This document shows, piece after piece, positions 13,607 to 38,145 of a stretch of DNA of 64,000 nt. Source of the stretch: Desulfobacterales bacterium (GTDB lineage Bacteria > Desulfobacterota > Desulfobacteria > Desulfobacterales > JAFDDL01). Each line of letters begins with the position of its first letter. The first letter of the stretch is position 1. The DNA lies in NCBI GenBank assembly GCA_963675725.2, contig CAXXXZ010000002.1, positions 4,143,979 through 4,207,978 of the forward strand, read 5' to 3'. A model generated the notes under the pieces. That model was not told the origin of the DNA. It searched no databases and saw nothing but the letters and a program-made list of their open reading frames with translations. The position numbers and the translations under genes are program-made.

Positions 13607-13740
13607 ACCGTAGACGCTTTGCTTGGGTGCGGGCCACGCGCGAAATCCCGGGCAGGGGTTCCGTTGTGTCCCACTCAGGCTTTTCAATTCATCATCCGTG
13701 GGCTGGAAAACCGGACCAACATGTTATCCCTGAAGAGGAA

Positions 13741-16008
13741 ATGATCCTGATGCTTGTCAATTCCCGACAACTTGTGAATGAGGTCAACAACACAAAGAAG
13801 CTTGACGAAGCCCTGTCGCTTGTAGTGAAACGGACGAAATCTTCCATGGATGCAGATGCATGTTCCGTCTATCTAAATGAAACACAAACCGACCGGTATC
13901 TTCTGATGGCGGCCGATGGATTGAATCCGGATGTGGTCGGTACGGCGCGAGTAACTCGTAGTGAAGGGTTGGTGGGCTGGGTGGCCGCACATGAAGAAGC
14001 CATCAACCTTTCGAACGCAGCAGACCATCCCGGCTTCCGCCATATTCCGCAAGTCGGGAACGAGTCTTTTCAAGGCTTTATGGGGGCACCCATCATTCAT
14101 CATGGCCGTGTCCTGGGAGTCCTGGTGGCCCAGAAGATAGAGAAACGATGCTTTGACGATGACGAGGCGGCTTTTTTCACGACACTTGCAACCCAGCTCG
14201 GTTGGGCCATCAATCACCTGTTGGCGAAATGGGATTTCAGCAAGCAACTAAACGGACCCTCCCGGGGAAGAATTTCTATCCGGGGTATTCCGTGCGCGCC
14301 AGGCATTGCTATTGGTAATATTGTGCTGTCGCAACCCGTGGACCTGCCATCAACACCCGATCGAAAAGCACCCGACATCGATACGGAAGAAAAAGCCTTC
14401 CAGGCCGCTGTGGTCGCAACCAAACAAGAATTGCGCGAAAGCAGTGACCGTATGAGCGGCTATCTGCCCGCCGAGGCGCATTCCCTGTTCGATGCATACG
14501 CAATGATGCTTGAATCCGACCGGCTGATTGCCGCAACGGTTGCACGGATCCGAAACGGGCAATGGGCACGAGGCGCGTTAAGCGACACCATTTTGGAGCT
14601 TGCGCAGGTCTTTGAGCAGATGGATGATCCGTATCTTGCCGCACGCGCCGAAGATATCCGCAGCATTGGCCGTCACATTCTACTCCATTTGCAGGGGAAC
14701 CCTCCGGCGCAGGGCGAGTATCCGAAGCAGTGCATTCTGGCGGGAACGGAGCTCAGTCTGGCTGAAATTTCGAATGTTCCCCGGGACCGGCTGTTTGGCA
14801 TCATCTGCATGAAAGGATCGGCGTTATCCCATACGGCGATCATTTGCCGTGCATTGGGGATTCCGGCTGTGATGGGGCTGGCTGATCTTCCGATCGGCTA
14901 TTTAGAGGATTGTGAGATCGCCGTTGATGGTAGCCGGGGAGTTGTCTGCCTCAACCCGTCGGTAGCCGATATCAATAAGTTTCGACAACGCATGAAAGAA
15001 GAACAAGCCATCTTTGCCCAAGGCGAAACGCTTCGCGATCTTCCCGCGCAAACCCTGGACGGCGTATCGATTCCACTGTATGTGAATTTAGGGATTGGCG
15101 CGGAAGACATATCGACGCACGCCGATGAATATGAGGGCGTAGGCCTCTATCGCACGGAGTTTTTCTTTATTGCGAGGGACACGCTTCCCACAGAGGACGA
15201 GCAATATGCGCTTTACCGAAATTTGCTTGAATCCTTTGCGCCAAAGCCGGTGACGATTCGCACCCTTGATGCCGGCGGTGACAAGAAGCTGCCTTTTTTT
15301 CCCATCGCTGAAACCAATCCATTTCTCGGCTGGCGTGGGATACGCTTCACCCTCGATCATCCGGAGATCTTCCTGACGCAACTTCGGGCGTTGTTACGAG
15401 CCAATTCGGAGCTTAATAATTTACAGATCCTTTTTCCCATGATCAGCAGGGTAAGCGAGATTGATAAGACTCTTGGTTTAGTGGACCGTGCGTATTTGGA
15501 TTTGACGGCGGAAGGCCGAGCGGTTTCAAAACCTAAAATAGGCGCCATGATCGAAGTGCCTTCGGCGGTCTATTTAATTGCCGCACTGTCTAAACGAGTG
15601 GATTTTTTCTCCATCGGAACGAACGATCTTACCCAGTATTTATTGGCCGTGGACAGAAACAATCCTCGAGTTCATGGCGTCTACGATAATTTGCACCCTG
15701 CCGTCATCCATGTCATTCACGACATCGTCCAAAGAGCGCATCTTCAAAACAAGCCGGTCGGCGTATGCGGTGAAATGGCCGGTAACCCTGCAACCGCCCT
15801 TTTGCTGTTGGGCCTCGGCATTGACTCGCTAAGCATGAACCCTTCCAGCCTCCCACGTGTTAAATGGACCATTCGTAGCTTCACCGGGCAGCAGGCGCGC
15901 GAGCTTTCCAATAAAGCACTGGAGAGCGAAAATGAAGCGGATACGCACCAGTTGCTGAACAATGCATTGAGCGCAGTCGGCCTGAGCGCGCTCGTCTGCG
16001 TAAATTGA
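13741..16008 (+). CDS. ptsP: GAF-domain phosphoenolpyruvate-protein phosphotransferase PtsP (EI-Ntr)
   Basis: N-terminal GAF, phospho-His region GSALSHTAIICRALGIPAV, and PEP-utilising barrel motifs FFSIGTNDLTQY and CGEMAG. Start taken at ATG 13741; the ORF is open from 13627. Confidence 0.9.
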   Translation: MILMLVNSRQLVNEVNNTKKLDEALSLVVKRTKSSMDADACSVYLNETQTDRYLLMAADGLNPDVVGTARVTRSEGLVGWVAAHEEAINLSNAADHPGFRHIPQVGNESFQGFMGAPIIHHGRVLGVLVAQKIEKRCFDDDEAAFFTTLATQLGWAINHLLAKWDFSKQLNGPSRGRISIRGIPCAPGIAIGNIVLSQPVDLPSTPDRKAPDIDTEEKAFQAAVVATKQELRESSDRMSGYLPAEAHSLFDAYAMMLESDRLIAATVARIRNGQWARGALSDTILELAQVFEQMDDPYLAARAEDIRSIGRHILLHLQGNPPAQGEYPKQCILAGTELSLAEISNVPRDRLFGIICMKGSALSHTAIICRALGIPAVMGLADLPIGYLEDCEIAVDGSRGVVCLNPSVADINKFRQRMKEEQAIFAQGETLRDLPAQTLDGVSIPLYVNLGIGAEDISTHADEYEGVGLYRTEFFFIARDTLPTEDEQYALYRNLLESFAPKPVTIRTLDAGGDKKLPFFPIAETNPFLGWRGIRFTLDHPEIFLTQLRALLRANSELNNLQILFPMISRVSEIDKTLGLVDRAYLDLTAEGRAVSKPKIGAMIEVPSAVYLIAALSKRVDFFSIGTNDLTQYLLAVDRNNPRVHGVYDNLHPAVIHVIHDIVQRAHLQNKPVGVCGEMAGNPATALLLLGLGIDSLSMNPSSLPRVKWTIRSFTGQQARELSNKALESENEADTHQLLNNALSAVGLSALVCVN

Positions 16009-17793: not shown

Positions 17794-19407
17794 ATGCAGT
17801 TTCCCTGGGCCTTGGCGGCTCGCCCCTTGCATCTCAAGCACAACCGTATTATAGTAAAGGAACCTATCTTGGAGAACAGGCATCCATCCGACGAATTGGG
17901 TAAGAAAATAGAGCGAGATAAGCAAATGGTAAAAGCATTTATGGAAATTTTTAATTCCTTCCTGGGTTCAGTTCGAGAACCTTTAGTGGTGCTTGACGCC
18001 GATCTGCACGTTGTAAAGGCTAATCCTTCTTTTTACCAGACTTTCAACGTCCGGCCGGAGGAAACGGAAGGAATTTTAATATACGATCTTGGCAACCGGC
18101 AATGGAACATTCCCAAATTAAAAGAATTGCTTGAAAACATTCTCCCACAGAATACCATATTCAATGACTTTGAGGTGGAACATAATTTTGAGACCATCGG
18201 TCGAAAAATAATGCATCTGAATGCCCGGCGGATCTACACGGAGGAAAACAAAACCCGGCTGATTCTGTTGGCCATCGAGGATGTGACCGATGGAGAATAT
18301 TATAAAAGACATCTTGAGGAAACGGTTGAAAAACGAACGGCCGAACTAAAATCGGCATTGGAAGAGGCGGAAAAGAGCAAACATTTTGCTGAAACAGCCC
18401 TTTTTGAAACAGAGAAATTAAAAGAACAACTCGATGCTGAGAGAAAGTACCTTCAGGATGAAATAAAACTGGAATACAACCACGAGAACATTATCGGCCA
18501 AAGTGATGAAATCAATTATGTATTCTATAAGATTGAGCAAATTGCCGCTGCAGATACTACCGTACTAGTGCTGGGCGAGACCGGAACCGGCAAAGAGCTG
18601 GTCGCCAGAGCGATTCACGGACTGAGCCTGCGTAAGGATCGCGCACTGGTCAAAATGAATTGTGCGGCACTCCCGTCAACTCTAATTGAAAGCGAACTCT
18701 TCGGCCACGAAAAAGGTGCTTTCACCGGGGCTCAGGCCAGACGGTTGGGACGATTTGAAATTGCCGATGGTGCCTCTCTGTTTCTGGATGAGATCGGCGA
18801 ACTTCCTATTGAATTGCAACCCAAGCTGCTCCAGGTGATACAGAACGGTGAGTTTGAACGTTTGGGAAGCTCCCAAACGATCAAGGTCGATGTTCGAATT
18901 ATCGCCGCCACCAATCGTAATTTGGAAGAGGAGGTCCGCAAGGGCCGATTTCGAGAGGATTTGTGGTACCGGCTGAATATTTTTCCAATCACCATGCCGC
19001 CGCTTCGGGATCGCCTGGACGACATTCCGCTGCTGGTTGATTTTTATGTTGATAAAATTTCAAAAAGGCTGGGAAAATCCATCGAGATGGTTCCGGTGGG
19101 TGTTATGGACGCGTTGCGGGACTATCCTTGGCCGGGTAACATTCGCGAACTGGAAAATGTCCTCGAACGTGCTGTGATCAGCTCATCCGGACCCAAACTT
19201 CGCCTGGTCGATGAACTGAAAAAGCCGCATAAGGATTTAATAAAATCCACTCACACCCTGGAGGATGTTGAGCGTGAATATATAACTCGCGTGCTGGAAC
19301 AGGTAAAATGGAAAGTGAGTGGTGACAACAGTGCCTCTGAAATCCTCGGCCTCGATCGGAGCACCTTGCGGGCCCGCATGCGTAAGCTCAATATTAAAAA
19401 ACCATAA
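17794..19407 (+). CDS. PAS-domain sigma54-dependent transcriptional activator (bacterial enhancer-binding protein)
   Basis: PAS N-terminus and a coiled-coil linker. AAA+ domain with GETGTGKE, the GAFTGA loop (EKGAFTGAQ) and FLDEIGE. Fis-type [22 protein letters not shown]. The true start may be ATG 17926. Confidence 0.92.
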
Positions 19408-19476
19408 ATTTTCATCCTCGTCTCAATCCCTCCCGATCATTTGCCACCCATAGCAACACCTTGAAGCCCCGAAAAA

Positions 19477-19507
19477 GGTCATATCCGACCACTGGTAACA
19501 TATGGCC
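19477..19507. promoter_or_regulatory. palindromic upstream activator sequence (cassette copy 1)
   Basis: GGTCATAT-N15-ATATGGCC flanked by A5/T5. Centre lies about 117 bp upstream of the GG of the sigma54 promoter. Conserved in copies 2 and 3. Confidence 0.7.
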
Positions 19508-19607
19508 CTTTTTATAGGGCAATTCATGCTGCCATGCACAGGCGTTGCAATCTAATTATCATTAAATAACAGGATGTTGAGTGACGTGTTGCTGAATTTT
19601 AGAAACC

Positions 19608-19625
19608 CGGCACAAAGAATGCAAT
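19608..19625 (+). promoter_or_regulatory. sigma54 (-24/-12) promoter, cassette copy 1
   Basis: CCGGCACAAAGAATGCAA. GG (19609-10) and GC (19621-22) are separated by exactly 10 nt. The same 17-mer occurs at 26696 and 33046. Confidence 0.8.
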
Positions 19626-19697
19626 TATAAATAATGATCGCCCGGAAAAAGTATTTTGGAGGCTAAAAAAAATTACCCCAAAAAAGGAAAACCTGTC

Positions 19698-20480
19698 ATG
19701 GAAAAAAGAATGTATCGCTTGGCGCTGATGGCAATCGTGGTCTCGTTGTTTTTAACCAGCGTCCCTCTGTTTGCGTCCGACGTGGATGATAAAATCGAAT
19801 CATCCGCAAAACAGTCTTATGTATTTAAAACCTACCTCAAGGGCGATGACATTAAAATTCAGGCCAAGGATGGCGTTGTCACCCTGACCGGAACGGTTTC
19901 AGAAGACTCCCACAAATCATTGGCCCGGGAGACGGTTGCGAGCCTGCCCGGAGTGAAAAGCGTGGACAACAAGCTGGAAGTAAATGCCGAAGCCCCGCTC
20001 GCTCTCTCGGATGCATGGCTCATAACCAAAGTAAAATCCGCACTTTTGTTCCATCGGAACGTAAGCGCCACCGGAACAGAGGTTCTATCAAAAGAAGGGC
20101 TTGTCACCTTGCGCGGCGAAGCCTCCAGCGCGGCCCAAAAAGACCTGACGGCCGAATACGTCAAGGATGTGGAAGGCGTCAAAGACGTTAAGAATGAGAT
20201 GACTCTATCAGCTGCCGCCATGAAGCCTGGTGAAAAAACGATGGGCGAAAAAATAGACACCATAGGCGAATTGATTGATGATGCGTCCATCACCGCCATG
20301 GTCAAGATGACGTTGCTGTATCATCGTTCGACCAGCGCTCTTAACACCACTGTCGAGACGACAGAAGGCGTGGTCAATTTGGGGGGCAATGCCAAAAACA
20401 TGGCCGAAAAGGACCTGGCCACCAAACTCGTTAGCGATGTTCACGGCGTAAAAAGCGTCGTCAACAACATGACCGTATAG
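19698..20480 (+). CDS. periplasmic triple-BON-domain protein (OsmY-like)
   Basis: Signal peptide LALMAIVVSLFLTSVPLFA. Three BON repeats (each ...GVVTLTG/LRG...LPGVKSV.N.L style). Confidence 0.85.
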   Translation: MEKRMYRLALMAIVVSLFLTSVPLFASDVDDKIESSAKQSYVFKTYLKGDDIKIQAKDGVVTLTGTVSEDSHKSLARETVASLPGVKSVDNKLEVNAEAPLALSDAWLITKVKSALLFHRNVSATGTEVLSKEGLVTLRGEASSAAQKDLTAEYVKDVEGVKDVKNEMTLSAAAMKPGEKTMGEKIDTIGELIDDASITAMVKMTLLYHRSTSALNTTVETTEGVVNLGGNAKNMAEKDLATKLVSDVHGVKSVVNNMTV

Positions 20481-20488
20481 GGAACCCG

Positions 20489-20671
20489 ATGATATCTTCG
20501 CCTTGTAGAAACTGCGATAAGCGTCATGTGCCCAAAAACATGTGCATGAAAGAGTGCGAGAAAATCGCGGCGATTCAACACTTTCAAACTACCGTAGGCA
20601 TACCGCCATTTGTGCGAAACGACAGCTCAGATACATTACCGGCCGTCCTGAGAGCGGTTGTCTCAAAATGA
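20489..20671 (+). CDS. hypothetical small Cys-rich protein
   Basis: 60-aa ORF starting 9 nt after the BON stop. CxxC...CxxxC pattern (SPCRNCDKRHVPKNMCMKEC). No family recognised. Confidence 0.3.
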   Translation: MISSPCRNCDKRHVPKNMCMKECEKIAAIQHFQTTVGIPPFVRNDSSDTLPAVLRAVVSK

Positions 20672-20787
20672 TGGCCACGTGCTGGGTGGACGGGCGGCGT
20701 TTCAAGCCGTTTGGATTGAAGGAACTGCGCGCCATGCGCCAGCTTTTTCTTTTCCGGGATCAACGAGGTGCCTCCCAAAATGGTTAA

Positions 20788-20912
20788 ATATGACCCTTTC
20801 CCGATGGAGATTAACAGTGGTCTTTAAATGTTTGTTTAGCAAATTACGTTTAAATATCAGAAATTTTGGTATCGTTACAGTGAATGTGTGGTACCTGGCA
20901 CAAATATTGAGT
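20788..20912 (+). promoter_or_regulatory. degenerate fourth copy of the UAS/sigma54 cassette
   Basis: Right UAS half ATATGACCC (20788-96), shared spacer TTTAAATATCAG, then TGGCACAAATATTGAG, where the -12 reads TTGA instead of TTGC. Spacing is the same as in copies 1-3. Confidence 0.45.
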
Positions 20913-21159
20913 ATTCAGTTATTAAAAGATGTCGGCACCACGATTTCCGATAGCGTTACTTTTCATATTCCGATACGCGATGACGTTTATCATGATTCGC
21001 TGCCGACCGAGGTATCTCCGCCGCCTGACGTTCGCGTTGGACCGACAATCGCGTCGTCAATCTTCAAACGGTGGAGAATTAAGATAAATTCCGGAAAAAG
21101 CCTCACCGATCTTTTGCACGGGAACTTCAGTACAAACATTATTCAACAGGAGGTCTACC

Positions 21160-21339
21160 ATGAAATCGAGCACCCAAGACAACGCAGAAGGTAAGTGGCA
21201 CAAGATGAAGGGTAAAATCAAGCAGGTCGTCGGAAAAGCAGTCGGGAACCGCGATTTGGAAGCCGAAGGCAAGGCCGAAAATGTTGATGGTAAGGTTCAA
21301 GAAAAGATCGGCGAGATCAAGGACGTCGTTGGGAAGTAA
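21160..21339 (+). CDS. CsbD-family general stress protein (not in supplied ORF track, 59 aa)
   Basis: MKSSTQDNAEGKWHKMKGKIKQVVGKAVGNRDLEAEGKAENVDGKVQEKIGEIKDVVGK. AGGAGG RBS. Confidence 0.85.
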   Translation: MKSSTQDNAEGKWHKMKGKIKQVVGKAVGNRDLEAEGKAENVDGKVQEKIGEIKDVVGK

Positions 21340-21388
21340 ACATAGACACCAGTCAAAAGAATCTGATGGCGTAATAAAGGAGGCCACC

Positions 21389-21538
21389 ATGCTTTGGACT
21401 ATATTTGTGATTCTACTGGTTTTGTGGGCGCTTGGGTTACTAACCGGATACACGATGGGCGGCATCATCCATGCCCTGCTGGTCATCGCCATTGTTGTGA
21501 TACTGATTCAAGTGTTTCAAGGACGAAGACGGGTTTAA
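21389..21538 (+). CDS. lmo0937-family small membrane protein
   Basis: MLWTIFVILLVLWALGLLTGYTMGGIIHALLVIAIVVILIQVFQGRRRV. AGGAGG RBS. A paralog lies at 31573. Confidence 0.8.
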   Translation: MLWTIFVILLVLWALGLLTGYTMGGIIHALLVIAIVVILIQVFQGRRRV

Positions 21539-21593
21539 CCCGTCTTACCATCACCAGAAAAGGTGAGGTATTAACTTAAAAGGAGTTGTTGCC

Positions 21594-21908
21594 ATGGAAA
21601 CAAGACGTTGGGCTGTCGCCTGTTTTGCTCTAATTATGTTTAGCGCCGCATATGTGGCCTTCGCATCCACATCCAAACAGGAAAGTATGGGGGAATACGT
21701 TGACGATTCGGTCATCACGGCCAAGGTCAAATCAATGCTGGCCGCAGATGATTTTCTCAAGTCATTTCAGATTGGTGTTGAAACCTACAAGGGCATCGTT
21801 CAACTGAGCGGCTTCGTTAATTCTCAAGAAGCGATCGATAATGCGGTCGAAATAACTCGCGACGTCAAGGGGGTCAAATCCGTCAAGAATGATCTGGTCG
21901 TGAAATAG
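21594..21908 (+). CDS. secreted single-BON-domain protein
   Basis: Signal peptide, then DDSVITAKVKSML...GIVQLSGFV...VKGVKSVKNDLVV. Confidence 0.85.
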   Translation: METRRWAVACFALIMFSAAYVAFASTSKQESMGEYVDDSVITAKVKSMLAADDFLKSFQIGVETYKGIVQLSGFVNSQEAIDNAVEITRDVKGVKSVKNDLVVK

Positions 21909-22187
21909 GCGGTTGTTATTTTCTCCCGGATGAAGCCGGGCGAGCACTGTTGATCCGAAACAGGGATTGACGATGTCGCGAGGGCGCTATGCACGGACAC
22001 CACGACCCGCGGCGTATACGAGTTTTCACGCGATAAGCTGCAGGCAGCGCACGCGCCTTGAATAAACTCGACCGGATTTCGTGCGTCCATTTCACCAATC
22101 CGGAGGTGCTTGCCAGTCTTCGTTTCGAGATCGATCGGGATGACGCCGTCACGGTTTTTGTGAGGCAAGAGCCATAGGAGCTGAAAC

Positions 22188-23627
22188 ATGATTCTCCGTA
22201 AGAAAAAGGTTCTGTTCATAACAACAGGCGTGATCACGCTTGTCGTCATAGCGACCATCCTCGCTCTTCTGCTGAGTATACAAGCCTTTAAACCGAAGAT
22301 CGAGGCAGCCGCGTCTACTGCTCTGGGGATGGATGTCCGGATAAAAGGCAGGATGGCCATCGCTTTTTATCCGGGCTTCGGTCTTTCGCTGAAGGAAGTC
22401 AACGTGCGGGACAGTGGACTGGATGTCGTTACGATTGGGGAGGTGAGGATAGGGCTGAAGCTCCTTGCCCTTGCGAGGTTCGAAATCAAGATAATCCAAG
22501 TCGAGCTTGTTAGGCCGGTCTTTTCCATCGTTCGGTCCAAAAACGGGATGTTCAATTTTGAAAAACCAGGACGCACGTCATGGGAAAAGCTTTTTACCAT
22601 GAAAAAGATATCCGTCTCTCAGGGGAGCCTTGTTTATATTGATGAAACATCCAGCGAAAAGATCGAAGTCGATGACTTGGATGCGAGCATAAGAAACCTT
22701 TTTTTCAGCGGGACGGACGACTCGGAACCATTCAAGAACATCTCATTTACTGGGGATACCAGATGCAAGACACTCAAGACCCATAATTTTACCCTGATGA
22801 ACCTCGTGATGAACGCCATAGGTGAAAAAGGAATATTCGATATCAATCCGGTCAGTATGAACATCTTCGGTGGAACGGGGAACGGAAGCCTTCATGTGGA
22901 CGTTACGGGACCATCGCCTCATTACAGGGCAATCTATACTCTTGATCGGGCCAGAATCGAAGAACTTCTTCAGCAATACTCGTTCAAGCATTCCCCCCAG
23001 AAGACCATAGAAGGGCCGATCAACTTTTCCGCGGATCTGACGGCAATAGGGAAGACTGCAGATGCAGTGAAGCGATCGCTTAACGGCGACCTTTCTTTGA
23101 ATGGACAGAACCTGATGCTTTACAACATCGATATCGATGCGCTTATCATGAAGTACGAACGAAGCCAAAACTTTAACCTCATGGATGTGGGGGCGATTTT
23201 GATCGCGGGGCCTTTCGGGCCATTACTTACCAAGAGCTACCATTTTACAAGCCTGTACGAAGAGTCGCAGGGCGGAAAAGGGATCATCAGAAAACTCGTC
23301 TCAGTGTGGGAGGTACAAAACGGCTTTGCCGAGGCGCGCGATGTAGCCATTTCCTCAACAAAGCAGAGGATCGCCATAAAAGGGGGATTGAACTTCATAA
23401 ACGAGCGGTTTGTCGACGTAACCGTAGCTGCCATCGATAAACGAGGGTGCGCCGTTTACAGCGAGAATGTGCACGGGTCCTTCCGTAAACCGCAGATTGA
23501 GAAGGAAAGTATCTTTAAGTCAATTGCCGGATCCGTATTGAATCCGCTGGAGGATGCGTGGGAATTCATTCAGGGCGAAGAGTGCACGGTATTTTACTCA
23601 GGTTCCGTAGCGCACCCGGAGGGTTAA
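22188..23627 (+). CDS. AsmA-family outer-membrane biogenesis protein
   Basis: N-terminal anchor VLFITTGVITLVVIATILALL, followed by a long beta-rich body. AsmA-like N-terminal and C-terminal segments recognised by eye. Confidence 0.65.
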   Translation: MILRKKKVLFITTGVITLVVIATILALLLSIQAFKPKIEAAASTALGMDVRIKGRMAIAFYPGFGLSLKEVNVRDSGLDVVTIGEVRIGLKLLALARFEIKIIQVELVRPVFSIVRSKNGMFNFEKPGRTSWEKLFTMKKISVSQGSLVYIDETSSEKIEVDDLDASIRNLFFSGTDDSEPFKNISFTGDTRCKTLKTHNFTLMNLVMNAIGEKGIFDINPVSMNIFGGTGNGSLHVDVTGPSPHYRAIYTLDRARIEELLQQYSFKHSPQKTIEGPINFSADLTAIGKTADAVKRSLNGDLSLNGQNLMLYNIDIDALIMKYERSQNFNLMDVGAILIAGPFGPLLTKSYHFTSLYEESQGGKGIIRKLVSVWEVQNGFAEARDVAISSTKQRIAIKGGLNFINERFVDVTVAAIDKRGCAVYSENVHGSFRKPQIEKESIFKSIAGSVLNPLEDAWEFIQGEECTVFYSGSVAHPEG

Positions 23628-26367: not shown

Positions 26368-26403
26368 TGCGTTTTCAGGTACTTAAAGGCTATATTTCTT
26401 GCA

Positions 26404-26497
26404 AGTGAGCGGCGAAAACAGTGCCTCTGAAATCCTCGGCCTCGACCGCAGCACCTTGCGCGCCCGCATGCGTAAGCTCAATATCTCAAAACCATAA
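26404..26497 (+). pseudogene. 3' remnant (HTH) of a second copy of the sigma54 activator gene
   Basis: Near-identical at the nucleotide level to 19318-19407 (cagtgcctctgaaatcctcggcctcga..gcaccttgcg.gcccgcatgcgtaagctcaatat). No upstream AAA+ region. Confidence 0.85.
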
Positions 26498-26562
26498 ATT
26501 CTCACCCCAAATTCAATCTGTCTCGATAATTTGCCGTCCATAACATCAAGACGATCTGAAAA

Positions 26563-26595
26563 GGGTCATATTTAACCGCTGGTACAATATGACCC
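26563..26595. promoter_or_regulatory. palindromic upstream activator sequence (cassette copy 2)
   Basis: Perfect GGGTCATAT-N15-ATATGACCC. Confidence 0.7.
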
Positions 26596-26695
26596 TTTTC
26601 ATATGGCTGTTCATGACTGTCATTTACAGGCGGTGCAACCTAATTTTTCTTAAATATCAGGAGGATGAGTGACGCGGCACTGAATTTTATAAACC

Positions 26696-26713
26696 CGGCA
26701 CAAAGAATGCACT
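26696..26713 (+). promoter_or_regulatory. sigma54 (-24/-12) promoter, cassette copy 2
   Basis: CCGGCACAAAGAATGCAC with GG-N10-GC spacing, 118 bp downstream of the UAS centre. Confidence 0.8.
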
Positions 26714-26832
26714 TAAATAGCAGATAATGACCTGAAAAGAAGCAACATGTTTCGATACCGAAGCGTTTGCCATGAAAAACAAACGAAACGCATGCGAAGA
26801 AAAACTCGATGGATAGTCAAAGGAGGCATGTC

Positions 26833-27081
26833 ATGCAGAATAAAACTGAATTATGCGAAAAGATCAAAGCCATCTATCCGGATGTCGGAGAATGCGGCGT
26901 TGATATTACGGTTGACTATGATGAGACCAAGAAGGCTTGGATTGTCGATCTCAAAAAGGGCGAACACCGGCTTAAAACTTACCTGGAACCCGCAGATGCC
27001 GACCTGTGTATGGCCGGCAAGCAATGTGTAGGCCTGGGGATTCAAATCGCACAACTCAGATCTAATATCGAGCAAATGTAG
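26833..27081 (+). CDS. small acidic 4-Cys protein of unknown function
   Basis: 82 aa. AGGAGG lies 6 nt upstream of ATG 26833. Preferred over the overlapping basic 26747 frame on composition and RBS spacing. Confidence 0.6.
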   Translation: MQNKTELCEKIKAIYPDVGECGVDITVDYDETKKAWIVDLKKGEHRLKTYLEPADADLCMAGKQCVGLGIQIAQLRSNIEQM

Positions 27082-27186
27082 CCCTGTATCAGGTATAGCC
27101 GGAAGTCGACAGTCAGCAGTCGACAGCAGAAGATTGTATCCGATTTCGGATTCTATAGCCACCGGCACGGAAAGGAGCCTGCAGGA

Positions 27187-28665
27187 ATGAACATTCTCCT
27201 TATTTACCCAAAATTTCCGGATACTTTCTGGTCGTTTACCTATGCGTTAAGTTTTATTGGAAAGAAAGCGGCCTTCCCGCCGCTGGGCCTGCTTACCGTT
27301 GCGTCCCTGTTACCGGCTGTCTGGCCCAAACGCCTTGTGGACGTAAATATAGAAAGCCTTGCGGATAAAGACCTCTTGTGGGCGGATATGGCCTTAATCG
27401 GAGGCATGGCGGTTCAGCGAAAATCGGCAAAACAAATTATCGCCCGTTGTAATGCCTTGAATTTAAAAGTTGTTGCCGGAGGACCGCTTTTTACTTCCGA
27501 ACCCGATGAATTCAAAAACGTGAATCATCTCGTCCTCGACGAAGCGGAACTCACGTTACCTGCCTTTTTATCGGACCTGCAAAACGGACAGCCTAAAAAG
27601 ATCTACAGGGCTTCGGGTTTCTGCGATCTTGTCGACACGCCGAATCCGATGTGGGATCTGATAAAAATGAAACGATATGCGTCCCTGAACATTCAGTTTT
27701 CCAGAGGCTGCCCGTTCAACTGCGAATTTTGCAACGTGACGACGCTGTTCGGTCATCGGCCCCGTATAAAAACACCTCGGCAAATCATCACGGAACTGGA
27801 CCGTATTTATGCTTCCGGCTGGCGCGGCAGCATATTTTTTGTCGACGACAATTTTATTGGAAATAAGGGCACCCTTAAAACCCATTTACTTCCCGCCCTG
27901 ATCGAATGGCAAAAAAATAAAAAGGGCTGTGTTTTTTTCACGGAGGCCTCCATCAATCTGGCGGATGACCCGGAACTTTTGAATATGATGGTCACGGCCG
28001 GATTCGATTCCGTTTTTATCGGCATCGAGTCGCCCGATGAGTTGAGTCTCACGGAATGTCATAAAACCCAGAATAAAAACCGGGATTTGCTTGAAAGCGT
28101 CAGAATTATTCACCGTTCAGGGTTACAGGTGATGGGTGGTTTTATTGTGGGCTTTGACAGCGATCTGCCCTCAATTTTCCAGCGACAGATCGATTTCATT
28201 CAGAAGAGCGGTATCGTCACGGCAATGGTTGGAATGCTTCAAGCCCCTCCGGGAACCCGTCTCTTTGATCGGCTTCAACGGGAAAGCCGGGTGGTCAATA
28301 CCTTTACCGGAGATAACGTCGATGGAACGACCAATATTATTCCCCGGATGGGCATAGACAAGCTCATGGAAGGGTATCAATCGATTATGAAACAGATTTA
28401 TTCGCCAAAAAATTACTACCGGCGGGTCAGGACGTTATTGAAGGAACTAAAGGCGCCTGCAATTTACCAGCCGCTGAATATTCAGCGCTTCCTTTCCTTC
28501 TTCCGGTCCGCTCTCCGGCTCGGGGTTTTTGGGAAAGAGCGTTTTCGTTACTGGCAGCTGGTGCTCTGGACCCTAAGCTACAAGCCCAGACTGATGTCGG
28601 TGGCCATAACGCTATCCATATATGGTTATCATTACCGTAGAATATGCGAACGATATATTTATTGA
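27187..28665 (+). CDS. B12-binding radical SAM protein (class B, DUF4070-type C-terminus)
   Basis: N-terminal cobalamin-binding fold (MALIGGMAVQ). Cluster motif SRGCPFNCEFC (CxxxCxxC). Confidence 0.85.
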   Translation: MNILLIYPKFPDTFWSFTYALSFIGKKAAFPPLGLLTVASLLPAVWPKRLVDVNIESLADKDLLWADMALIGGMAVQRKSAKQIIARCNALNLKVVAGGPLFTSEPDEFKNVNHLVLDEAELTLPAFLSDLQNGQPKKIYRASGFCDLVDTPNPMWDLIKMKRYASLNIQFSRGCPFNCEFCNVTTLFGHRPRIKTPRQIITELDRIYASGWRGSIFFVDDNFIGNKGTLKTHLLPALIEWQKNKKGCVFFTEASINLADDPELLNMMVTAGFDSVFIGIESPDELSLTECHKTQNKNRDLLESVRIIHRSGLQVMGGFIVGFDSDLPSIFQRQIDFIQKSGIVTAMVGMLQAPPGTRLFDRLQRESRVVNTFTGDNVDGTTNIIPRMGIDKLMEGYQSIMKQIYSPKNYYRRVRTLLKELKAPAIYQPLNIQRFLSFFRSALRLGVFGKERFRYWQLVLWTLSYKPRLMSVAITLSIYGYHYRRICERYIY

Positions 28666-28868
28666 GACAAATTTTGATCTGTTTGATTTGCAGAAGAGGT
28701 GAGCTATTAACGAGGAAAAGTTATAAGAGCCAATTTCAAAACGCCCCCTTTTATCCAATTTCGGTGTCAGACGAAAATTATAATCCTCGGAATACGTTAT
28801 GTATGCCTGTGGTTATAATTTTTGACTTCCTTGAACTTGAATAAAATTGAACATTTTGAAACTGGCTC

Positions 28869-28991
28869 ATGAGTAAAGCAAATTTTATGGGGCGTTTTTT
28901 TATGGGGCTTTTTTTGTTTGCGTTCATCGCAGGCTGCGTCGGCCCACGTCATCAGGAACAATCTTACTTGGTTTTGCAACGAACCATTTGA
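28869..28991 (+). CDS. possible mini-lipoprotein (40 aa, not in ORF track)
   Basis: MSKANFMGRFFMGLFLFAFIAGC with a lipobox. No clear RBS. Confidence 0.25.
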   Translation: MSKANFMGRFFMGLFLFAFIAGCVGPRHQEQSYLVLQRTI

Positions 28992-29010
28992 TGAAAGGGA
29001 CAGAATCCCA

Positions 29011-29205
29011 ATGAATGAACTCTATGAATATCGAGAGAAACTTGAATTTCTGCTCGACAACTGGAACGCCGAGCTTGACAAATTGGAGGATAGTACCGGC
29101 AAGTCCGGCGCTGATCCTAAGGCCGATCACGACGGGATATTATCAGCGTTGCGGCAGAACCGTTATAATGAGATCCCATCTTTGAAAGTGAACAAGCAAA
29201 TATGA
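29011..29205 (+). CDS. coiled-coil protein, apparently a truncated paralog of 31762-32052
   Basis: LDNWNAELDKLE parallels MSEWDAQIDLLK of the 96-aa paralog. The 3' end merges into sequence also found upstream of the 33104 gene. Confidence 0.4.
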   Translation: MNELYEYREKLEFLLDNWNAELDKLEDSTGKSGADPKADHDGILSALRQNRYNEIPSLKVNKQI

Positions 29206-29218
29206 AAGGAAAAGGACC

Positions 29219-29410
29219 ATGCCGCTGATTCATTTAGTAATTACTTTGGTTGTGGTTGGGGTGATTCTTTGGCTGATTAACAGCTACATACCCATGCAGG
29301 CTACCATAAAGAAAATTTTGAATGCCGTAGTGGTTATTGTGGTGGTTCTCTGGCTATTGAGCGTCTTCGGACTCATCGGCCCCATTCAAGGGTTTCGTAT
29401 CGGGAGGTGA
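29219..29410 (+). CDS. Thivi_2564-family small membrane protein
   Basis: MPLIHLVITLVVVGVILWLINSYIPMQATIKKILNAVVVIVVVLWLLSVFGLIGP. A close paralog lies at 33104. Confidence 0.8.
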   Translation: MPLIHLVITLVVVGVILWLINSYIPMQATIKKILNAVVVIVVVLWLLSVFGLIGPIQGFRIGR

Positions 29411-29542
29411 AGAACAGGAAATTTATTCGATACACCGAACAGAAGAAAAACATTCATTTCAAATGTCGCGGGCATCATATTGTCCAATTCAACAAGGCCT
29501 TTTTACAGGCGAGAACATATAAAAACTCAAAGAGTGGAGGGA

Positions 29543-29929
29543 ATGATGAAGACTGGAATTAAAATACAATTCTGTATTCTTGGCTTGGCCTTGCTGACCT
29601 TGACGGCTTGCGGCACAGCCAAGCAACCGCCATTGAGCCAGATGGCTTTGGCTCAGTCAGCCGTGGAAAAAGCTGCATCCGCCGGATCCGGTGAGTATGC
29701 TTCTTTGGACCTAAGGACGGCGCGGGACAAAATCGACCGGGCCAAAACAGCTATACAGTCCAAAGACAAAAACTATTTAACGGCAGAGCGTCTATTGGAA
29801 GAGGCGAAAGTAGATGCGGAGCTGGCGGAAGCCAAATCTAAAACGGCAAAATCCCAAAAAATCGTGGCTGAGCTGAAAGAAAGCATTGATATGCTGAGAG
29901 ACGAAATTCAACGGAACCGTACCCAATAA
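29543..29929 (+). CDS. DUF4398-type lipoprotein
   Basis: Lipobox LTLTAC, then an Ala/Lys/Glu-rich helical body. Paired with a downstream OmpA-family gene, as is typical. Confidence 0.7.
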   Translation: MMKTGIKIQFCILGLALLTLTACGTAKQPPLSQMALAQSAVEKAASAGSGEYASLDLRTARDKIDRAKTAIQSKDKNYLTAERLLEEAKVDAELAEAKSKTAKSQKIVAELKESIDMLRDEIQRNRTQ

Positions 29930-29959
29930 TTGCCGTAAAACAACAATCAGGAGGCGATC

Positions 29960-30940
29960 ATGTCTATATTAATCAGCAAATTCAATGCATTTATCCTCAT
30001 ATCAGGAATTGCGTTGGTGGCCCCGGCGCTTTCAGGATGTGCGCATACCATGAGGACCAATGCCGCTTTGGAAGAAGCCCAGGCCGTCTATCGGACAGCT
30101 CAGGAAAACCCGGATGTTGCCCGAAATGCTTCTCTGGAACTTAAAAAAGCCGAAACGGCACTGAACAAGGCGGAGCAATTGTTACAGCAAAAAGGCGAAA
30201 CGGATGCAATTGAACACCAGGCTTACCTGGCCAAACAGCATGCCTATATATCCGAGGAAATCGGTAAGCAGAAAATGGCAGAGGCGGCGTTAGAGCAGGC
30301 TGGCGCCGAGCGCAACAAAGTTATTCTAGAGGCTCGTACAAAGGAAGCAAAGCTTGCCGAGCGGAACGCTTCTGCTGAAAAAGCAGCCGCACTGAAAGCC
30401 ATGGAAGATGCCAAAGCGCAGAAAGCCGCCGCATTAAACGCCATGGAGGAAGCGGAAGTGCAAAAAGCCGCCGCCGAATCAGCCATGGCGGAAGCAGCAG
30501 CGGCAAACGATAAATCTTTAAAGCTCGAACAGGAGATCGCGAAACTGAAGGCAATAAAGGCGGACCGAGGTCTGGTCATAACCCTTGGAGATGTCGTCTT
30601 CGACGTGAACAAGTCTGACCTGAAGACGGGAGGCGTCTCGGCCGTTGGGAAAATAGTTGCATTCCTTAAGGAATATCCAACCCGGGGTGTAATGATTGAA
30701 GGATTCACGGATAGTACCGGGGAGTTGGAGTACAACCAGGCTTTGTCTGAAAGGCGTGCGCTTGCGGTACGCCGGGTCTTCCAAACCAACGGCATCGAAT
30801 CTGCTCGCACTGATTTTATAGGTTACGGGGAAGATTTCCCGGTAGCAACCAATGAGACGGCGGCAGGCCGCCAGATGAACCGTAGGGTCGAGATCATTAT
30901 TTCCGATGAAGCGGGAGTCATACCTGTACGTGTGAAATAG
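29960..30940 (+). CDS. OmpA-family lipoprotein with DUF4398-like N-terminus and Ala-rich repeat linker
   Basis: Lipobox LSGC. Repeats AAALKAMEDAKAQKAAALNAMEEAEVQKAAAESAMAEAAAA. OmpA_C motifs GFTDSTG...NQALSERRA...NRRVEI. Confidence 0.88.
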   Translation: MSILISKFNAFILISGIALVAPALSGCAHTMRTNAALEEAQAVYRTAQENPDVARNASLELKKAETALNKAEQLLQQKGETDAIEHQAYLAKQHAYISEEIGKQKMAEAALEQAGAERNKVILEARTKEAKLAERNASAEKAAALKAMEDAKAQKAAALNAMEEAEVQKAAAESAMAEAAAANDKSLKLEQEIAKLKAIKADRGLVITLGDVVFDVNKSDLKTGGVSAVGKIVAFLKEYPTRGVMIEGFTDSTGELEYNQALSERRALAVRRVFQTNGIESARTDFIGYGEDFPVATNETAAGRQMNRRVEIIISDEAGVIPVRVK

Positions 30941-31015
30941 AAAAAAGCGTTTAGAACATCCTATGGCAGGGAATCTTAATTCAAATACCAAAATTGACAA
31001 AGAAATGGAGAAATC

Positions 31016-31225
31016 ATGATTCTTAAAAAATTATTAACAATTATGGCCTTAATTCTATCCATGTTTGCATTTACCGCCTGTGAATCGAAAGGGCCTGTAG
31101 AAAGAGCCGGTGAAAAAATCGACCAGGCTGTTCAAAAAACCACTGAAAAAGCAAAAGAAGTAACCGAAGCCGTAAAGGAAAAAGCCGAAGAAGCCGGGGA
31201 AGAGGTAAAAAAGGCAACTCAGTAA
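31016..31225 (+). CDS. small Lys/Glu-rich lipoprotein
   Basis: Lipobox FTAC, followed by KEVTEAVKEKAEEAGEEVKKATQ. Confidence 0.65.
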   Translation: MILKKLLTIMALILSMFAFTACESKGPVERAGEKIDQAVQKTTEKAKEVTEAVKEKAEEAGEEVKKATQ

Positions 31226-31299
31226 ACCCCAACGTTGAAAGTCCGGGGGTATTTAAACTAAACCTCCCATCAGCTAAAAAAGCATTTTCGGAGCAGTCA

Positions 31300-31552
31300 T
31301 CGGCAGTCTGTAAATATGTACTCTATAAGATTGAGCAAATCGCCGGCACGGATACCAATGCTTTGGTTCTCGGCGAGACCGGAACCGGCAAAGAGCTGGT
31401 GCGCGAGCCATTCACGGTTTGAGCCTGCGTAAGGACCGCGAACTGGAAAATGTCAACGGGCTGTGATCAGCTCATCCGGACCCAAACTTCGCCTGGTGGA
31501 TGAACTGAATAAGCCGCACAAGGATTTAATAAAGTCTACTCATATCATCTAA
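31300..31552 (+). pseudogene. internally deleted, frameshifted remnant of a third sigma54 activator copy
   Basis: 31316-31446 aligns to the Walker-A region of the intact gene (about 18518-18645). The alignment then jumps to about 19148-19260 (gaactggaaaatgtc...). There is also a 1-nt indel in gctggtgcgcgagccattcacgg. Confidence 0.85.
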
Positions 31553-31572
31553 CAAATTGAAAGGAGAATCCA

Positions 31573-31722
31573 ATGTTGTGGACGATTGCCGTCATACTGG
31601 GAATTCTGTGGCTGTTCGGATTCGTGAGCAGCTACACGATGGGAGGGTTCATTCATATCCTGCTGGTGATTGCCGTTATCGTGGTGCTGATCAATATCAT
31701 CCAGGGCCGGAGAATCAGTTAA
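31573..31722 (+). CDS. lmo0937-family small membrane protein (49 aa, not in ORF track)
   Basis: MLWTIAVILGILWLFGFVSSYTMGGFIHILLVIAVIVVLINIIQGRRIS. AAGGAG RBS. Replaces the out-of-frame track ORF 31557-31751. Confidence 0.8.
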   Translation: MLWTIAVILGILWLFGFVSSYTMGGFIHILLVIAVIVVLINIIQGRRIS

Positions 31723-31761
31723 TCATCAGTAACGTATCAACTCAACCATGAGGAGTTTATT

Positions 31762-32052
31762 GTGAACGAAAAACGAAAAGCCTATGAAGAGAAAATCGAC
31801 GCGCAGATGTCAGAATGGGACGCGCAGATCGATCTGCTGAAGGCCAAGGCGGACAAAGCCAAGGCACAGACGAAGATCGAATACTACAAAACCATCGAAG
31901 CATTGCAGCGCAAGAAAAATGGGGCGGGAACAAAACTACACGAGCTGAAGACTGCAGGAGATGAAGCGTGGGAAGACCTTAAAACAGGCGCTGAAAAGGC
32001 CTGGGATGACGTGAAGACAGCCTTACACAGTGCGACCTCAAAGTTCAAATGA
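31762..32052 (+). CDS. coiled-coil small protein of unknown function
   Basis: 96 aa. GTG start behind GAGGAG. Helical K/A/E-rich sequence. Confidence 0.6.
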   Translation: MNEKRKAYEEKIDAQMSEWDAQIDLLKAKADKAKAQTKIEYYKTIEALQRKKNGAGTKLHELKTAGDEAWEDLKTGAEKAWDDVKTALHSATSKFK

Positions 32053-32145
32053 GTTCAAAGGCCGGACTCACAGGCATGACATTTATGACCCCTGTTGGTG
32101 AAAAAAGAAGACGGTCGATTCCGTAAAATTATCCGCCGTCAACGG

Positions 32146-32246
32146 GTGATCTGGACCCTAAGCGACAAGCCCAGGCTGAAGTAACCGAAGCCGTAAAGGA
32201 AAAAGCCGAAGAAGCCGGGAAAGAGGTAAAAAAGGCAACCGAGTAA
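32146..32246 (+). pseudogene. deletion-junction remnant: radical-SAM 3' fragment fused to lipoprotein 3' fragment
   Basis: 32146-32179 matches 28562-28596 (ctggaccctaagc.acaagccca..ctga). 32178-32246 matches 31159-31225 (gaagtaaccgaagccgtaaaggaaaaagccgaagaagccggg.aagaggtaaaaaaggcaac..agtaa). Confidence 0.8.
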
Positions 32247-32358
32247 AGCATGAAAAAAGTGAATATTGTGTACCACACTCCGGCAGATAAAGGTGCTGCC
32301 GGCAAAGAATTTTAGGGCACCTCGCGATTATCAGAAAAGCGACAGTAAGGGGAAATAT

Positions 32359-32760
32359 ATGAAAACAACCATGGGGCTGTGGATAGATCATCGCAAAGCG
32401 GTGATTGTGTCAGTTTCGGGCAAAGGGGAGGAAATCAGCGTTATCGAATCAAGGGCAGAAAAGCAGCCCGGAAGGTTTGACGGGGTACGTTCGACTACCC
32501 CCTATGAAGCTCAGAAGGTTTCAGCGGATGGCAGGCAGGATAGAAAATTTGCCGATCAACTCAACATCTACTACGATGAGGTCATTTCGGTTCTTCGTGA
32601 CGCCGAATCCATTTTTCTTTTTGGTCCTGGAGAGGCAAAGGGCGAGCTGAAAAAACGTCTAGAAGATGACCATCTCGCTCACCGCATCCAAGCTGTGGAA
32701 ACAGTTGATCAGATGACGGATCGCCAGATTGCAGCGAAGGTCCGGGAGTATTTTCACTGA
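32359..32760 (+). CDS. hypothetical protein, possibly eRF1/Pelota-like (host-attachment/baeRF-type) fold
   Basis: 133 aa. IFLFGPGEAKGELKKRL resembles the GPG..K central motif of eRF1-domain proteins. This is a weak, memory-based call. Confidence 0.45.
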   Translation: MKTTMGLWIDHRKAVIVSVSGKGEEISVIESRAEKQPGRFDGVRSTTPYEAQKVSADGRQDRKFADQLNIYYDEVISVLRDAESIFLFGPGEAKGELKKRLEDDHLAHRIQAVETVDQMTDRQIAAKVREYFH

Positions 32761-32901: not shown

Positions 32902-32932
32902 GGTCATACTTGACCACTGGTACAATATGACC
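32902..32932. promoter_or_regulatory. palindromic upstream activator sequence (cassette copy 3)
   Basis: GGTCATAC-N15-ATATGACC. Confidence 0.65.
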
Positions 32933-33045
32933 TTTTAACGGTGTTTATTTTGTGATTGCCCATGAGGGCCCGGCAAGTGCTTAGTTAGGCAAATTATTCT
33001 TAAATATCAGGATAATGGATGGTGTGCCGCTGAGTATCAGGAACC

Positions 33046-33063
33046 CGGCACAAAGAATGCATT
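33046..33063 (+). promoter_or_regulatory. sigma54 (-24/-12) promoter, cassette copy 3
   Basis: CCGGCACAAAGAATGCAT with GG-N10-GC spacing. Confidence 0.8.
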
Positions 33064-33103: not shown

Positions 33104-33301
33104 ATGACGATGCCGTTGATTAATTTAGTGATTACTTTGGTTGTGGTAGGAGTGATTCTTTGGCTGATTAACAACTATATACCCATGCAGGTTACTATAA
33201 AGAAAATTTTGAATGCCGTAGTGGTTATTGTTGTGGTTCTCTGGTTGTTGAGTGCCTTCGGGCTCATAGGGCCTATCTCTGGATTTCGTCTTAAGATGTG
33301 A
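33104..33301 (+). CDS. Thivi_2564-family small membrane protein (paralog of 29219)
   Basis: MTMPLINLVITLVVVGVILWLINNYIPMQVTIKKILNAVVVIVVVLWLLSAFGLIGP. The start may be ATG 33110. Confidence 0.8.
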   Translation: MTMPLINLVITLVVVGVILWLINNYIPMQVTIKKILNAVVVIVVVLWLLSAFGLIGPISGFRLKM

Positions 33302-33361
33302 AGTCTTCGAAAGTAAAGAAAAGGGATTTCAAATTTGATGGTCTCGTAAAAAGTCAATATA

Positions 33362-33459
33362 TCACGCAAAGCCGCAGATAAGCGAAGACTTCGAAGAACG
33401 CCAAGAAGAATCTTTTAATATTAGGCAGTTAGCTTTGCGGGCTTCGCGGCTTTGCGTGA
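33362..33459. repeat. 14-bp perfect inverted repeat with 70-nt spacer (REP/MITE-like element)
   Basis: TCACGCAAAGCCGC (33362-75) pairs with GCGGCTTTGCGTGA (33446-59). The interior carries GCGAAG/CTTCGAAG motifs. Confidence 0.6.
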
Positions 33460-33590
33460 GAAAAGTAGTTTTTACGATGTTGTCAAATTTGAGATCCGAA
33501 GGATGGCCCTGACGAGGGAATAACGGCGTTGCGGCAGCACCGGTGCGAAGCAGAATTTGATGAGATTTATAAAATAGGAGGGACTGTGCA

Positions 33591-34166: not shown

Positions 34167-34231
34167 AGAACACCGAATGTAAGACTCAGCATTTTAACAG
34201 CTACTTTTTATTGCACAGGGAGGATTCAGGT

Positions 34232-34958: not shown

Positions 34959-34976
34959 TGGCATGAAGTTTGAGTA
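34959..34976 (+). promoter_or_regulatory. sigma54-like element with non-canonical -12 (TTGA)
   Basis: TGGCATGAAGTTTGAGTAT closely resembles the degenerate cassette-4 element TGGCACAAATATTGAGTAT. It lacks the GC dinucleotide. Confidence 0.25.
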
Positions 34977-35062
34977 TCTAAATAGAGTTGCGTTAAAACG
35001 CCAACGTTCTTGGAGGAGTGGTCAACGCCCAGTTGGCGTCAACGTACAACAGGAGTAACGCC

Positions 35063-35293: not shown

Positions 35294-35328
35294 CCCAAAC
35301 AAGTTAGCGTTTCAGAGAGGTGATCGCA

Positions 35329-35673: not shown

Positions 35674-35674
35674 C

Positions 35675-35794: not shown

Positions 35795-35824
35795 AGATAA
35801 AGGTAAAGGGAATAGGGTGCGGTT

Positions 35825-38131: not shown

Positions 38132-38145
38132 CAAAAGGATCCGCC

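Follow-up and report, generated by a model that had tools for sequence, protein, structure and literature searches.

Stress-response organization without RpoS is poorly understood in the sulfate-reducing Desulfobacterota, and the genomes of this phylum carry dozens of sigma-54 activators that lack assigned roles. Could one such activator govern a stress regulon? The question is raised by 64,000 nucleotides of DNA from a Desulfobacterales bacterium (hereafter, "the window"; C2:4143979-4207978 of a 5.26-Mb genome with 47% G+C). The window contains a gene for a PAS-domain activator, which we term EBP1 (for enhancer-binding protein), and an earlier note on this DNA had proposed that EBP1 and sigma-54 drive a neighboring set of genes of the general-stress type. 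In this report, we found that these genes lie behind repeated cassettes, each made up of a tandem palindrome, a putative DNA-bending site and a promoter of the sigma-54 class. The cassettes are conserved in relatives (Desulfobacterales-type metagenome-assembled genomes), and they co-occur with the activator. We put the probability that a working sigma-54/activator regulon operates over these genes at about 0.75.

The enhancer-promoter cassettes

Each cassette begins with the tandem palindrome GGTCATATATGACC-N3-GGTCATATATGACC, the putative upstream activating sequence (UAS). A site resembling that of integration host factor (IHF) follows, and a -24/-12 element of the sigma-54 type stands ~100 nt after the palindrome. 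Three intergenic regions of the window (cassettes 1-3; Table 1) have in common the 31-bp tandem palindrome GGTCATATnnnACC-N3-GGTnnnATATGACC, with an identical CGGCACAAAGAATGCA 100, 101 or 113 nt after it; the predicted transcript start of cassette 1 lies near 19634. Further, the 18-mer CCCGGCACAAAGAATGCA has three identical copies in the whole genome, all within the region of these cassettes. When a profile built from the orthologous cassettes (R1) was run on the whole genome, only five strong matches were returned, namely the four cassettes of the window and one located 5.6 kb before it. A strict search for TGGCAC-N5-TTGC gave no matches, as the promoters depart from this consensus; the search was therefore made with a position matrix that leaves out the -12 C.

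The predicted architecture is the textbook anatomy of an enhancer-dependent sigma-54 promoter. A UAS is expected 80-200 nt from its promoter, often with an IHF site between the two; here, the tandem palindrome is found 100-101 nt before the -24 element, with the IHF-like block AAATCAAnatGATG between them.

Table 1. Coordinates of the cassettes, activators and genes. Positions are those of the window unless a contig is named; R1 is the score against the cassette profile.
Feature	Position	Strand	Details
ptsP (GAF + enzyme I, EI-Ntr type)	13627..16008	+	Pfam GAF, PEP-utilisers_N, PEP-utilizers, PEP-utilizers_C
EBP1 (PAS, coiled-coil, AAA+ sigma-54 activator, HTH_8)	17794..19407	+	Pfam, translation
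Cassette 1	19477..19623	+	tandem UAS 19477-19507; IHF-like A/T element ~19564-19579; CGGCACAAAGAATGCA 19608-19623; R1 74 bits
Triple-BON OsmY-like periplasmic protein	19699..20480	+	Pfam BON x3
Cassette 4	20782..20911	+	half UAS 20782-20795; ancestral-type promoter TGGCACAAATATTGAG 20896-20911; R1 56 bits, model positions 25-163 only
csbD	21160-21339	+	Pfam CsbD
DUF5670/lmo0937-like, 49 aa	21391-21538	+	homolog of DUF5670 copy 31573-31722
Single-BON protein	21594-21908	+	Pfam
AsmA-family protein	22188..23627	+	Pfam AsmA
Remnant, 3' end of an EBP gene copy	26403..26497	+	repeat D3: 19313-19458 vs 26403-26548, 84% identity
Cassette 2	26564..26711	+	tandem UAS 26564-26594; promoter 26696-26711; R1 74.4 bits
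Genes behind cassette 2	26809..32760	+	90-aa Cys protein, B12/radical-SAM (DUF4070), sll1863-like, Thivi_2564, DUF4398 lipoprotein, DUF4398-OmpA, Lys/Glu-rich lipoprotein, EBP pseudogene pieces, DUF5670, sll1863-family protein, 164-aa protein
Thivi_2564 family proteins	29219-29410 and 33104-33301	+	
DUF4398/OmpA	29480-30940 and 34151-34942	+	
Lys/Glu-rich lipoprotein	31016-31225	+	
EBP pseudogene pieces	31312-31542	+	inside the cassette-2 gene block
DUF5670 copy	31573-31722	+	
Cassette 3	32902..33061	+	tandem UAS 32902-32932; promoter 33046-33061; R1 62 bits
Genes behind cassette 3	33104..34942	+	Thivi_2564 protein, CBS-pair protein, OmpA-domain lipoprotein
CBS-pair protein	33591-34166	+	
Orphan ancestral-type promoter TGGCATGAAGTTTGAG	34959..34974	+	17 nt past the OmpA stop codon, directly before KH-ABM-GT4
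KH, ABM-fold, GT4-fusion glycosyltransferase, GT4, two GH130	35018..41686	+	Pfam, NCBIfam; likely starts: KH (KhpA-like) 35063, ABM-fold protein 35329
EBP2, fifth cassette and its genes	C2:4136719-4144880 (ends at window 902)		outside the window save its end

Conservation in relatives

In 80 orthologous loci, we found 87 tandem palindromes, and for 81 of them a -24/-12-type match lies to one side at a distance of 90-125 nt; at four control offsets, such matches numbered 0-2 of ~170 (~1%). Of 85 palindrome-promoter pairs, 62 are spaced by 100 or 101 nt, and the intervening block AAATCAAnatGATG is likewise conserved and fits the IHF consensus WATCAANNNNTTR. The earlier note had called for a check on whether the activator ortholog keeps company with these genes; for the cassettes, the outcome is favorable. 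Among 31 genomes of the same order, representing 30 genera, 10 carry cassettes; 8 of them encode a full-length activator ortholog, as against none of the 21 cassette-free genomes (p ~6e-6 by hypergeometric arithmetic). Outside the order, one of 200 other genomes of the phylum matched, under stricter filters by which weak matches may be lost. The regulon appears largely confined to the Desulfobacterales-type order.

The genome also has the requisite sigma factor: rpoN is represented by one PF04552 match (212.8 bits) in a 480-aa open frame. Its other sigma factors are RpoD, RpoH, FliA and about four of ECF size. No RpoS or SigB equivalog was found in the genome, the best non-RpoD match to the RpoS model being RpoH at 161.8 bits (cut-off, 378.7) and the next FliA; EcfG and PhyR were not specifically searched for. 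The conserved layout in 80 loci, the fixed spacing of ~100 nt, the co-occurrence with the activator, the placement of all detectable CsbD/BON/DUF5670/Thivi_2564/sll1863-type genes in the island that bears the cassettes, the presence of rpoN and the absence of RpoS and SigB all argue strongly for the wiring that had been proposed. Metatranscriptome coverage is consistent with a regulon, albeit weakly.

Several observations weigh against a working regulon of this kind. The cassettes of the window are not uniform: cassette 3 has a spacing of 113 nt instead of 100, cassette 4, in front of csbD, is irregular in having a single half-site with TGGCACAAATATTGAG exactly 100 nt on, and the orphan promoter TGGCATGAAGTTTGAG before the KH and ABM genes has neither UAS nor IHF site, its UAS having been lost. 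The canonical -12 C is lacking in 91 of 101 cassette promoters, and the genome's other sigma-54-like sites favor TTGC (97 at the correct spacer vs 31-49 at wrong spacers). In the two cassette-bearing genomes that have no full-length activator, there are PAS fragments by the cassettes, or the cassette is at a contig end. Metatranscriptome contigs of relatives contain expressed homologs of the ABM, csbD and BON genes, and none of them spans the spacer between UAS and promoter or gives usable ends. Finally, the "stress" role is read from the functions of the protein families in other bacteria.

The activator and its sensor domain

EBP1 contains PAS, Sigma54_activat (PF00158, 7.9e-71), AAA_lid and HTH_8 domains, and the canonical GAFTGA loop can be read in its translation. 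It has no Response_reg match in Pfam; with PAS at its N-terminus and no receiver, identity as an NtrC-type two-component response regulator was rejected. Its NCBIfam scores are under every equivalog cut-off. PspF was rejected as well, given a score of 286.3 bits vs a cut-off of 443.55 (TIGR02974) and the presence of the N-terminal PAS domain. Orthologs of 73-83% identity occur in 80 species-level genomes of the Desulfobacterales type, with strain NaphS2 (L074), which can be cultivated, among the carriers, and the genome itself encodes at least 29 sigma-54 activator paralogs. In two relatives, the ortholog is interrupted by stop codons or is present only as PAS fragments beside cassettes (G002:C5:533050-534477; G008:C61/C89), a sign that some lineages may be losing the regulator.

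The structural model of the PAS region is good (pLDDT 81); it shows a PAS core with an N-cap helix, and a helix of 64 residues that connects to the AAA+ domain. Because its structural matches are all generic PAS domains (LOV-HK, DosP, NifL, WalK) at 11-22% identity, no cofactor can be assigned. Residues 1-230 are free of cysteine, which rules out both a LOV adduct and an Fe-S cluster like that of OrpR. If other activators with a coiled-coil linker are a guide, the ATPase is probably kept as an inactive dimer by the PAS dimer until a signal arrives. A Kai timer as the input was considered and rejected for this genome and its order: KaiB was not found in the genome, and its presence does not track that of cassettes in the 31 relatives. 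No conserved partner genes were detected upstream of the activator orthologs, with GroES/EL, PtsP and a CheB-CheR-PAS fusion each found in 3-5 of 73 loci.

A second activator, EBP2, is encoded outside the window. It is 81% identical to EBP1 over the AAA+/HTH part, has a PAS_3 sensor unlike the PAS domain of EBP1, and has GSFTSA as its loop. Behind its gene, 5.6 kb upstream of the window start, is the fifth cassette, which is full and precedes genes for a 166-aa protein, a PAS histidine kinase, two SPFH proteins, a small conserved protein and FtsH.

Target genes and the inducing signal

The gene identities first read from the letters of the window (the receiver-less PAS-AAA+ activator and the triple-BON, CsbD, lmo0937-like, BON, AsmA, Thivi_2564, DUF4398/OmpA, Lys/Glu-rich lipoprotein and CBS proteins) were borne out by Pfam and NCBIfam. 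Such content is typical of RpoS, SigB and EcfG regulons, as the earlier note had it, and with these the genes behind cassettes have CsbD, OsmY/BON, Transgly_assoc (YmgE/YeaQ/GlsB), DUF3309, small membrane proteins and chaperones in common. Those regulons, however, employ a dedicated sigma factor of the sigma-70 family that is governed by proteolysis or partner switching, whereas a sigma-54 enhancer system would be responsible here.

Which genes do the cassettes precede most often? We clustered the open reading frames behind 101 cassettes in the 80 loci and counted the cassettes followed by each family. An ABM-fold protein, usually the first or second gene, follows 50 cassettes in 47 loci. Then come a B12/radical-SAM enzyme (DUF4070; 13 cassettes), single-BON proteins (12), a KhpA-like KH protein and DUF5670 (11 each), CsbD (10), the GT4 fusion (9), FtsH and Transgly_assoc (8 each), two SPFH clusters (6 and 5), DUF3309 (6), Thivi_2564 (5) and CBS (4). 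These counts make the ABM-fold protein, with radical-SAM or glycosyltransferase genes, the core, and the general-stress-type proteins recurrent accessories.

Whole-genome cassette searches in other genera, extending beyond the neighborhood of the activator, gave a similar picture. Cassettes precede genes for BON, KH-SPFH, ABM-SPFH-FtsH, KH-ABM-radical-SAM, triple-BON-csbD and OmpA, and also for GroEL, an RRM protein, a response regulator with PtsP, and the activator itself. In another genus, a cassette is followed by csbD, DUF5670, BON and Lys/Glu-rich lipoprotein genes, which are ordered as they are in the window; L096 is a relative in which csbD-DUF5670-BON is so arranged. In the genome under study, all CsbD, BON, DUF5670, Thivi_2564, sll1863-type and Lys/Glu-rich lipoprotein genes detectable by tblastn fall in this island.

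It is possible, though less likely than not, that the wiring is real and yet answers to one specific cue rather than to general stress, with the small stress proteins as recruits to a core function in metabolism or lipid modification (ABM, radical-SAM/B12, glycosyltransferases). Membrane or lipid perturbation, salinity, and redox change or oxygen exposure of an anaerobe are candidate cues. The ranking of the targets is favorable to this idea, as the best-conserved ones (ABM, radical-SAM/B12, GT4/GH130, KH and CBS) are not stress proteins; each activator has one PAS sensor, and many targets (BON, OmpA, SPFH, FtsH, AsmA) are envelope-associated. But a single cue sits less easily with the placement of GroEL, FtsH, KH, RRM and the whole CsbD/BON/DUF5670 complement under the same site, with two different sensor domains that feed the same UAS, and with a genome that is devoid of RpoS and SigB. 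Judging from the known roles of these families, an envelope and proteome stress response in a lineage without RpoS or SigB is the most likely function of the regulon.

Growth of the array

Pieces of EBP genes lie both just before cassette 2 and within the block of genes behind it (Table 1). Therefore, the array grew by duplication of units composed of activator, cassette and genes. This history admits another explanation for the likeness of the cassettes, i.e., that most of those in the window are relics of recent segmental duplication, with only one or two still working, and that their similarity reflects descent and not selection. The same EBP remnants could be cited in its favor, as could the degenerate cassette 4, the altered spacing of cassette 3 and the orphaned promoter of the KH and ABM genes. 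We nonetheless regard it as improbable. Although identity among the copies has dropped to 64-83%, their palindrome, IHF-like block and promoter are intact; the extra 12-13 nt of cassette 3 approximate one helical turn; and the same gene families stand behind independent cassettes in other genera. The orphan promoter TGGCATGAAGTTTGAG itself matches the promoters before KH-ABM in orthologous loci. Inserted genes have apparently taken the place of its UAS and IHF site.

The promoter class and the -12 base

The 101 cassette promoters have the consensus YGGCAY-RAA-NN-TTG-A, in which GG, CA and TTG are invariant and at the right spacing. The -12 dinucleotide is GA in 62, GG in 17, GT in 12 and GC in 10. 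Given the preference for TTGC at the genome's other sigma-54-like sites, the deviation at -12 belongs to the cassette regulon. Three of the four window cassettes do have a -12 C; these three gained their GC secondarily and lost other consensus bases. Such deviation is compatible with function: TTGAAT at -12 is used by the sigma-54 RNA polymerase of P. putida in vitro (PMC11997794).

That TGGCAY-N5-TTGA is no sigma-54 promoter at all, with transcription by sigma-70 or ECF factors and the palindrome serving either some other regulator or the activator in its control of unrelated genes, is very unlikely: the missing -12 C in ~90% of cassettes and the roughly four ECF-size sigma factors could be cited for it, but it is opposed by the invariant GG, CA and TTG at fixed mutual spacing, the fixed 100-nt distance to the palindrome, the IHF-like site in between, the adjacency and co-occurrence of cassettes with a GAFTGA activator, the in vitro activity of TTGAAT just cited, and sigma-70-like matches that are fewer in the region than in shuffled sequence.

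A 15-mer, TGGCATATCGTTTGG, occurs in ~12 copies genome-wide (e.g., C2:205921, 432932, 914272 and 1100639) and causes -24/-12-like sites that have a -12 G to be overcounted. It is probably part of a dispersed repeat.

Proposed mechanism and implications

From the architecture described above, we infer a pathway that begins with the binding of activator dimers to two adjacent 14-bp palindromes (GGTCATATATGACC), whose centers are 17 bp apart, ~127-157 nt upstream of the transcript start. The IHF-like site, ~65 nt upstream of the start, would bend the DNA. Via its GAFTGA loop, the AAA+ ring would then contact sigma-54 holoenzyme on TGGCAY-N5-TTG(A/C) and open the promoter. Five cassettes in a 40-kb stretch would thus serve both sensor paralogs, whose PAS domains differ. 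Once units of activator, cassette and genes had been duplicated, the surplus activator copies would have decayed. Under such control, the core targets would be the KH protein, the ABM-fold protein, the radical-SAM/B12 enzyme and the glycosyltransferase/GH130 genes; variable modules for the envelope, osmotic balance and proteostasis would comprise BON/OsmY-like, CsbD, DUF5670, Thivi_2564 and sll1863-type proteins, OmpA/DUF4398 lipoproteins and SPFH-FtsH.

A bolder proposal, which we advance only tentatively and hold to be rather doubtful, is that this module of PAS activator and sigma-54 is the master general stress response of Desulfobacterales without RpoS or SigB. In this proposal, interchangeable PAS paralogs would converge on one 14-bp palindrome, the regulon would grow as entire enhancer-promoter cassettes were copied to sites before stress genes, and its promoters would be a class of their own, in which TTGA in place of TTGC at -12 tunes basal activity or activator dependence.

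For the many sigma-54 activators without roles, the present analysis supplies one case with a predicted regulator, binding site and promoter class and a set of targets that is kept in at least 80 species-level genomes. It also places several uncharacterized families (ABM-fold, DUF5670, Thivi_2564, sll1863-type, DUF4070 radical-SAM and GT4/GH130) in a shared regulatory context. Further, the regulon constitutes a natural series of -12 variants for the study of sigma-54 promoter tuning.

Relation to known systems

Control of envelope-related and stress functions by sigma-54 is established in general (Francke 2011, PMC3162934). The mechanism proposed here is a canonical one. What appear undescribed are the subfamily of the regulator, its binding site, the content of the regulon and the consistently non-canonical base at -12. 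Full-text literature searches returned no account of a sigma-54 regulon with genes of the CsbD/BON/OsmY type, no paper that joins RpoN with osmY and CsbD regulons, and none of relevance on CsbD, sulfate reducers and sigma factors together.

The closest parallels each differ in important respects. PspF and the psp genes of E. coli and its relatives have in common with the system proposed here a receiver-less sigma-54 activator, a promoter with UAS, IHF site and -24/-12 element, and an envelope-stress output. However, PspF has no sensor domain and is restrained by PspA, whereas EBP1 has a PAS domain and a long coiled-coil, there is no PspA in the locus, and the targets are entirely different. 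DVU3305 of Desulfovibrio vulgaris belongs to a "three-component" general-stress system with UspA-type and membrane protein targets (Rajeev 2011, PMC3333781; Kazakov 2015, PMC4641369). Like EBP1, it is a sigma-54 activator of a sulfate reducer proposed for general-stress-type genes, and in both cases potassium uptake genes are nearby or targeted. Unlike EBP1, DVU3305 is a two-component response regulator whose loop reads GAFSGA and which comes with a histidine kinase and a Lon-fused receiver, and its binding site and lineage differ. The one-component PAS/GAF activators NifA, NorR, DmpR and the OrpR of D. vulgaris (PMC8359166) likewise have a sensor fused to AAA+ and HTH domains, and an IHF-assisted promoter such as is predicted for EBP1. 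They differ from EBP1, which is below all of the equivalog cut-offs and, having no Cys in its sensor region, could not hold a cluster of the OrpR type.

Other genes and features of the window

Two of the earlier proposals about neighboring genes fared less well. The AsmA gene had been counted among the targets, and this is not upheld, as it has no cassette of its own and no such linkage is conserved in relatives; situated 280 nt past the BON gene, it may be transcribed by read-through from the csbD operon. The ptsP gene ends 1786 nt before the start of EBP1, as had been noted, but the link drawn from this proximity is weak: ptsP adjoins the activator ortholog in only ~5 of 80 loci (L001, L023, L055 and L078 among them). 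In one relative (L093), a cassette is followed by a response regulator gene and then by ptsP. A connection of ptsP to the regulon is suggestive only.

The triple-BON protein was not accepted as an OsmY equivalog (NF007858, 121.6 bits vs a cut-off of 174), having three BON domains and not two. Between its gene and cassette 4 is an open reading frame for a 60-aa Cys-rich protein (20489-20671) with no family match, after which comes a terminator-like hairpin (20727-20739). In contigs of closely related strains from run X1, a DNA metagenome that contains the organism, and in one RNA contig (X7), ~197 nt of the csbD leader (20914-21112) are skipped; the long leader found here therefore looks like an insertion. 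The trkH-trkA genes (23992-26153), located between the AsmA gene and the activator remnant, have a G+C of 0.58 vs ~0.48 around them and no cassette, and they look like an insert.

Before ptsP, the first part of the window (1-13400) is without a cassette. It encodes the end of FtsH, a Toprim/primase-like protein, a cardiolipin synthase (PLD x2), two Hsp20 proteins, a Pat-like acyl-CoA synthetase-GNAT acetyltransferase, an aldehyde dehydrogenase, CbpA/CbpM and an orphan GroEL. With FtsH, Toprim, cardiolipin synthase, Hsp20, acetyltransferase, CbpA/CbpM and GroEL ahead of ptsP, the 45-kb stretch as a whole reads as a stress island. Parts of this segment presumably resemble transmissible protein-quality-control loci.

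At the other end of the array, the KH and ABM genes are followed (35825-41686) by those for the 768-aa GT4 fusion, a GT4 protein and two GH130 proteins that are like beta-1,2-mannobiose phosphorylases, with scores below the cut-offs. The GT4 fusion stands behind cassettes in 9 other loci. This GT4/GH130 set may represent a pathway for a solute or a glycan that is controlled in the same way.

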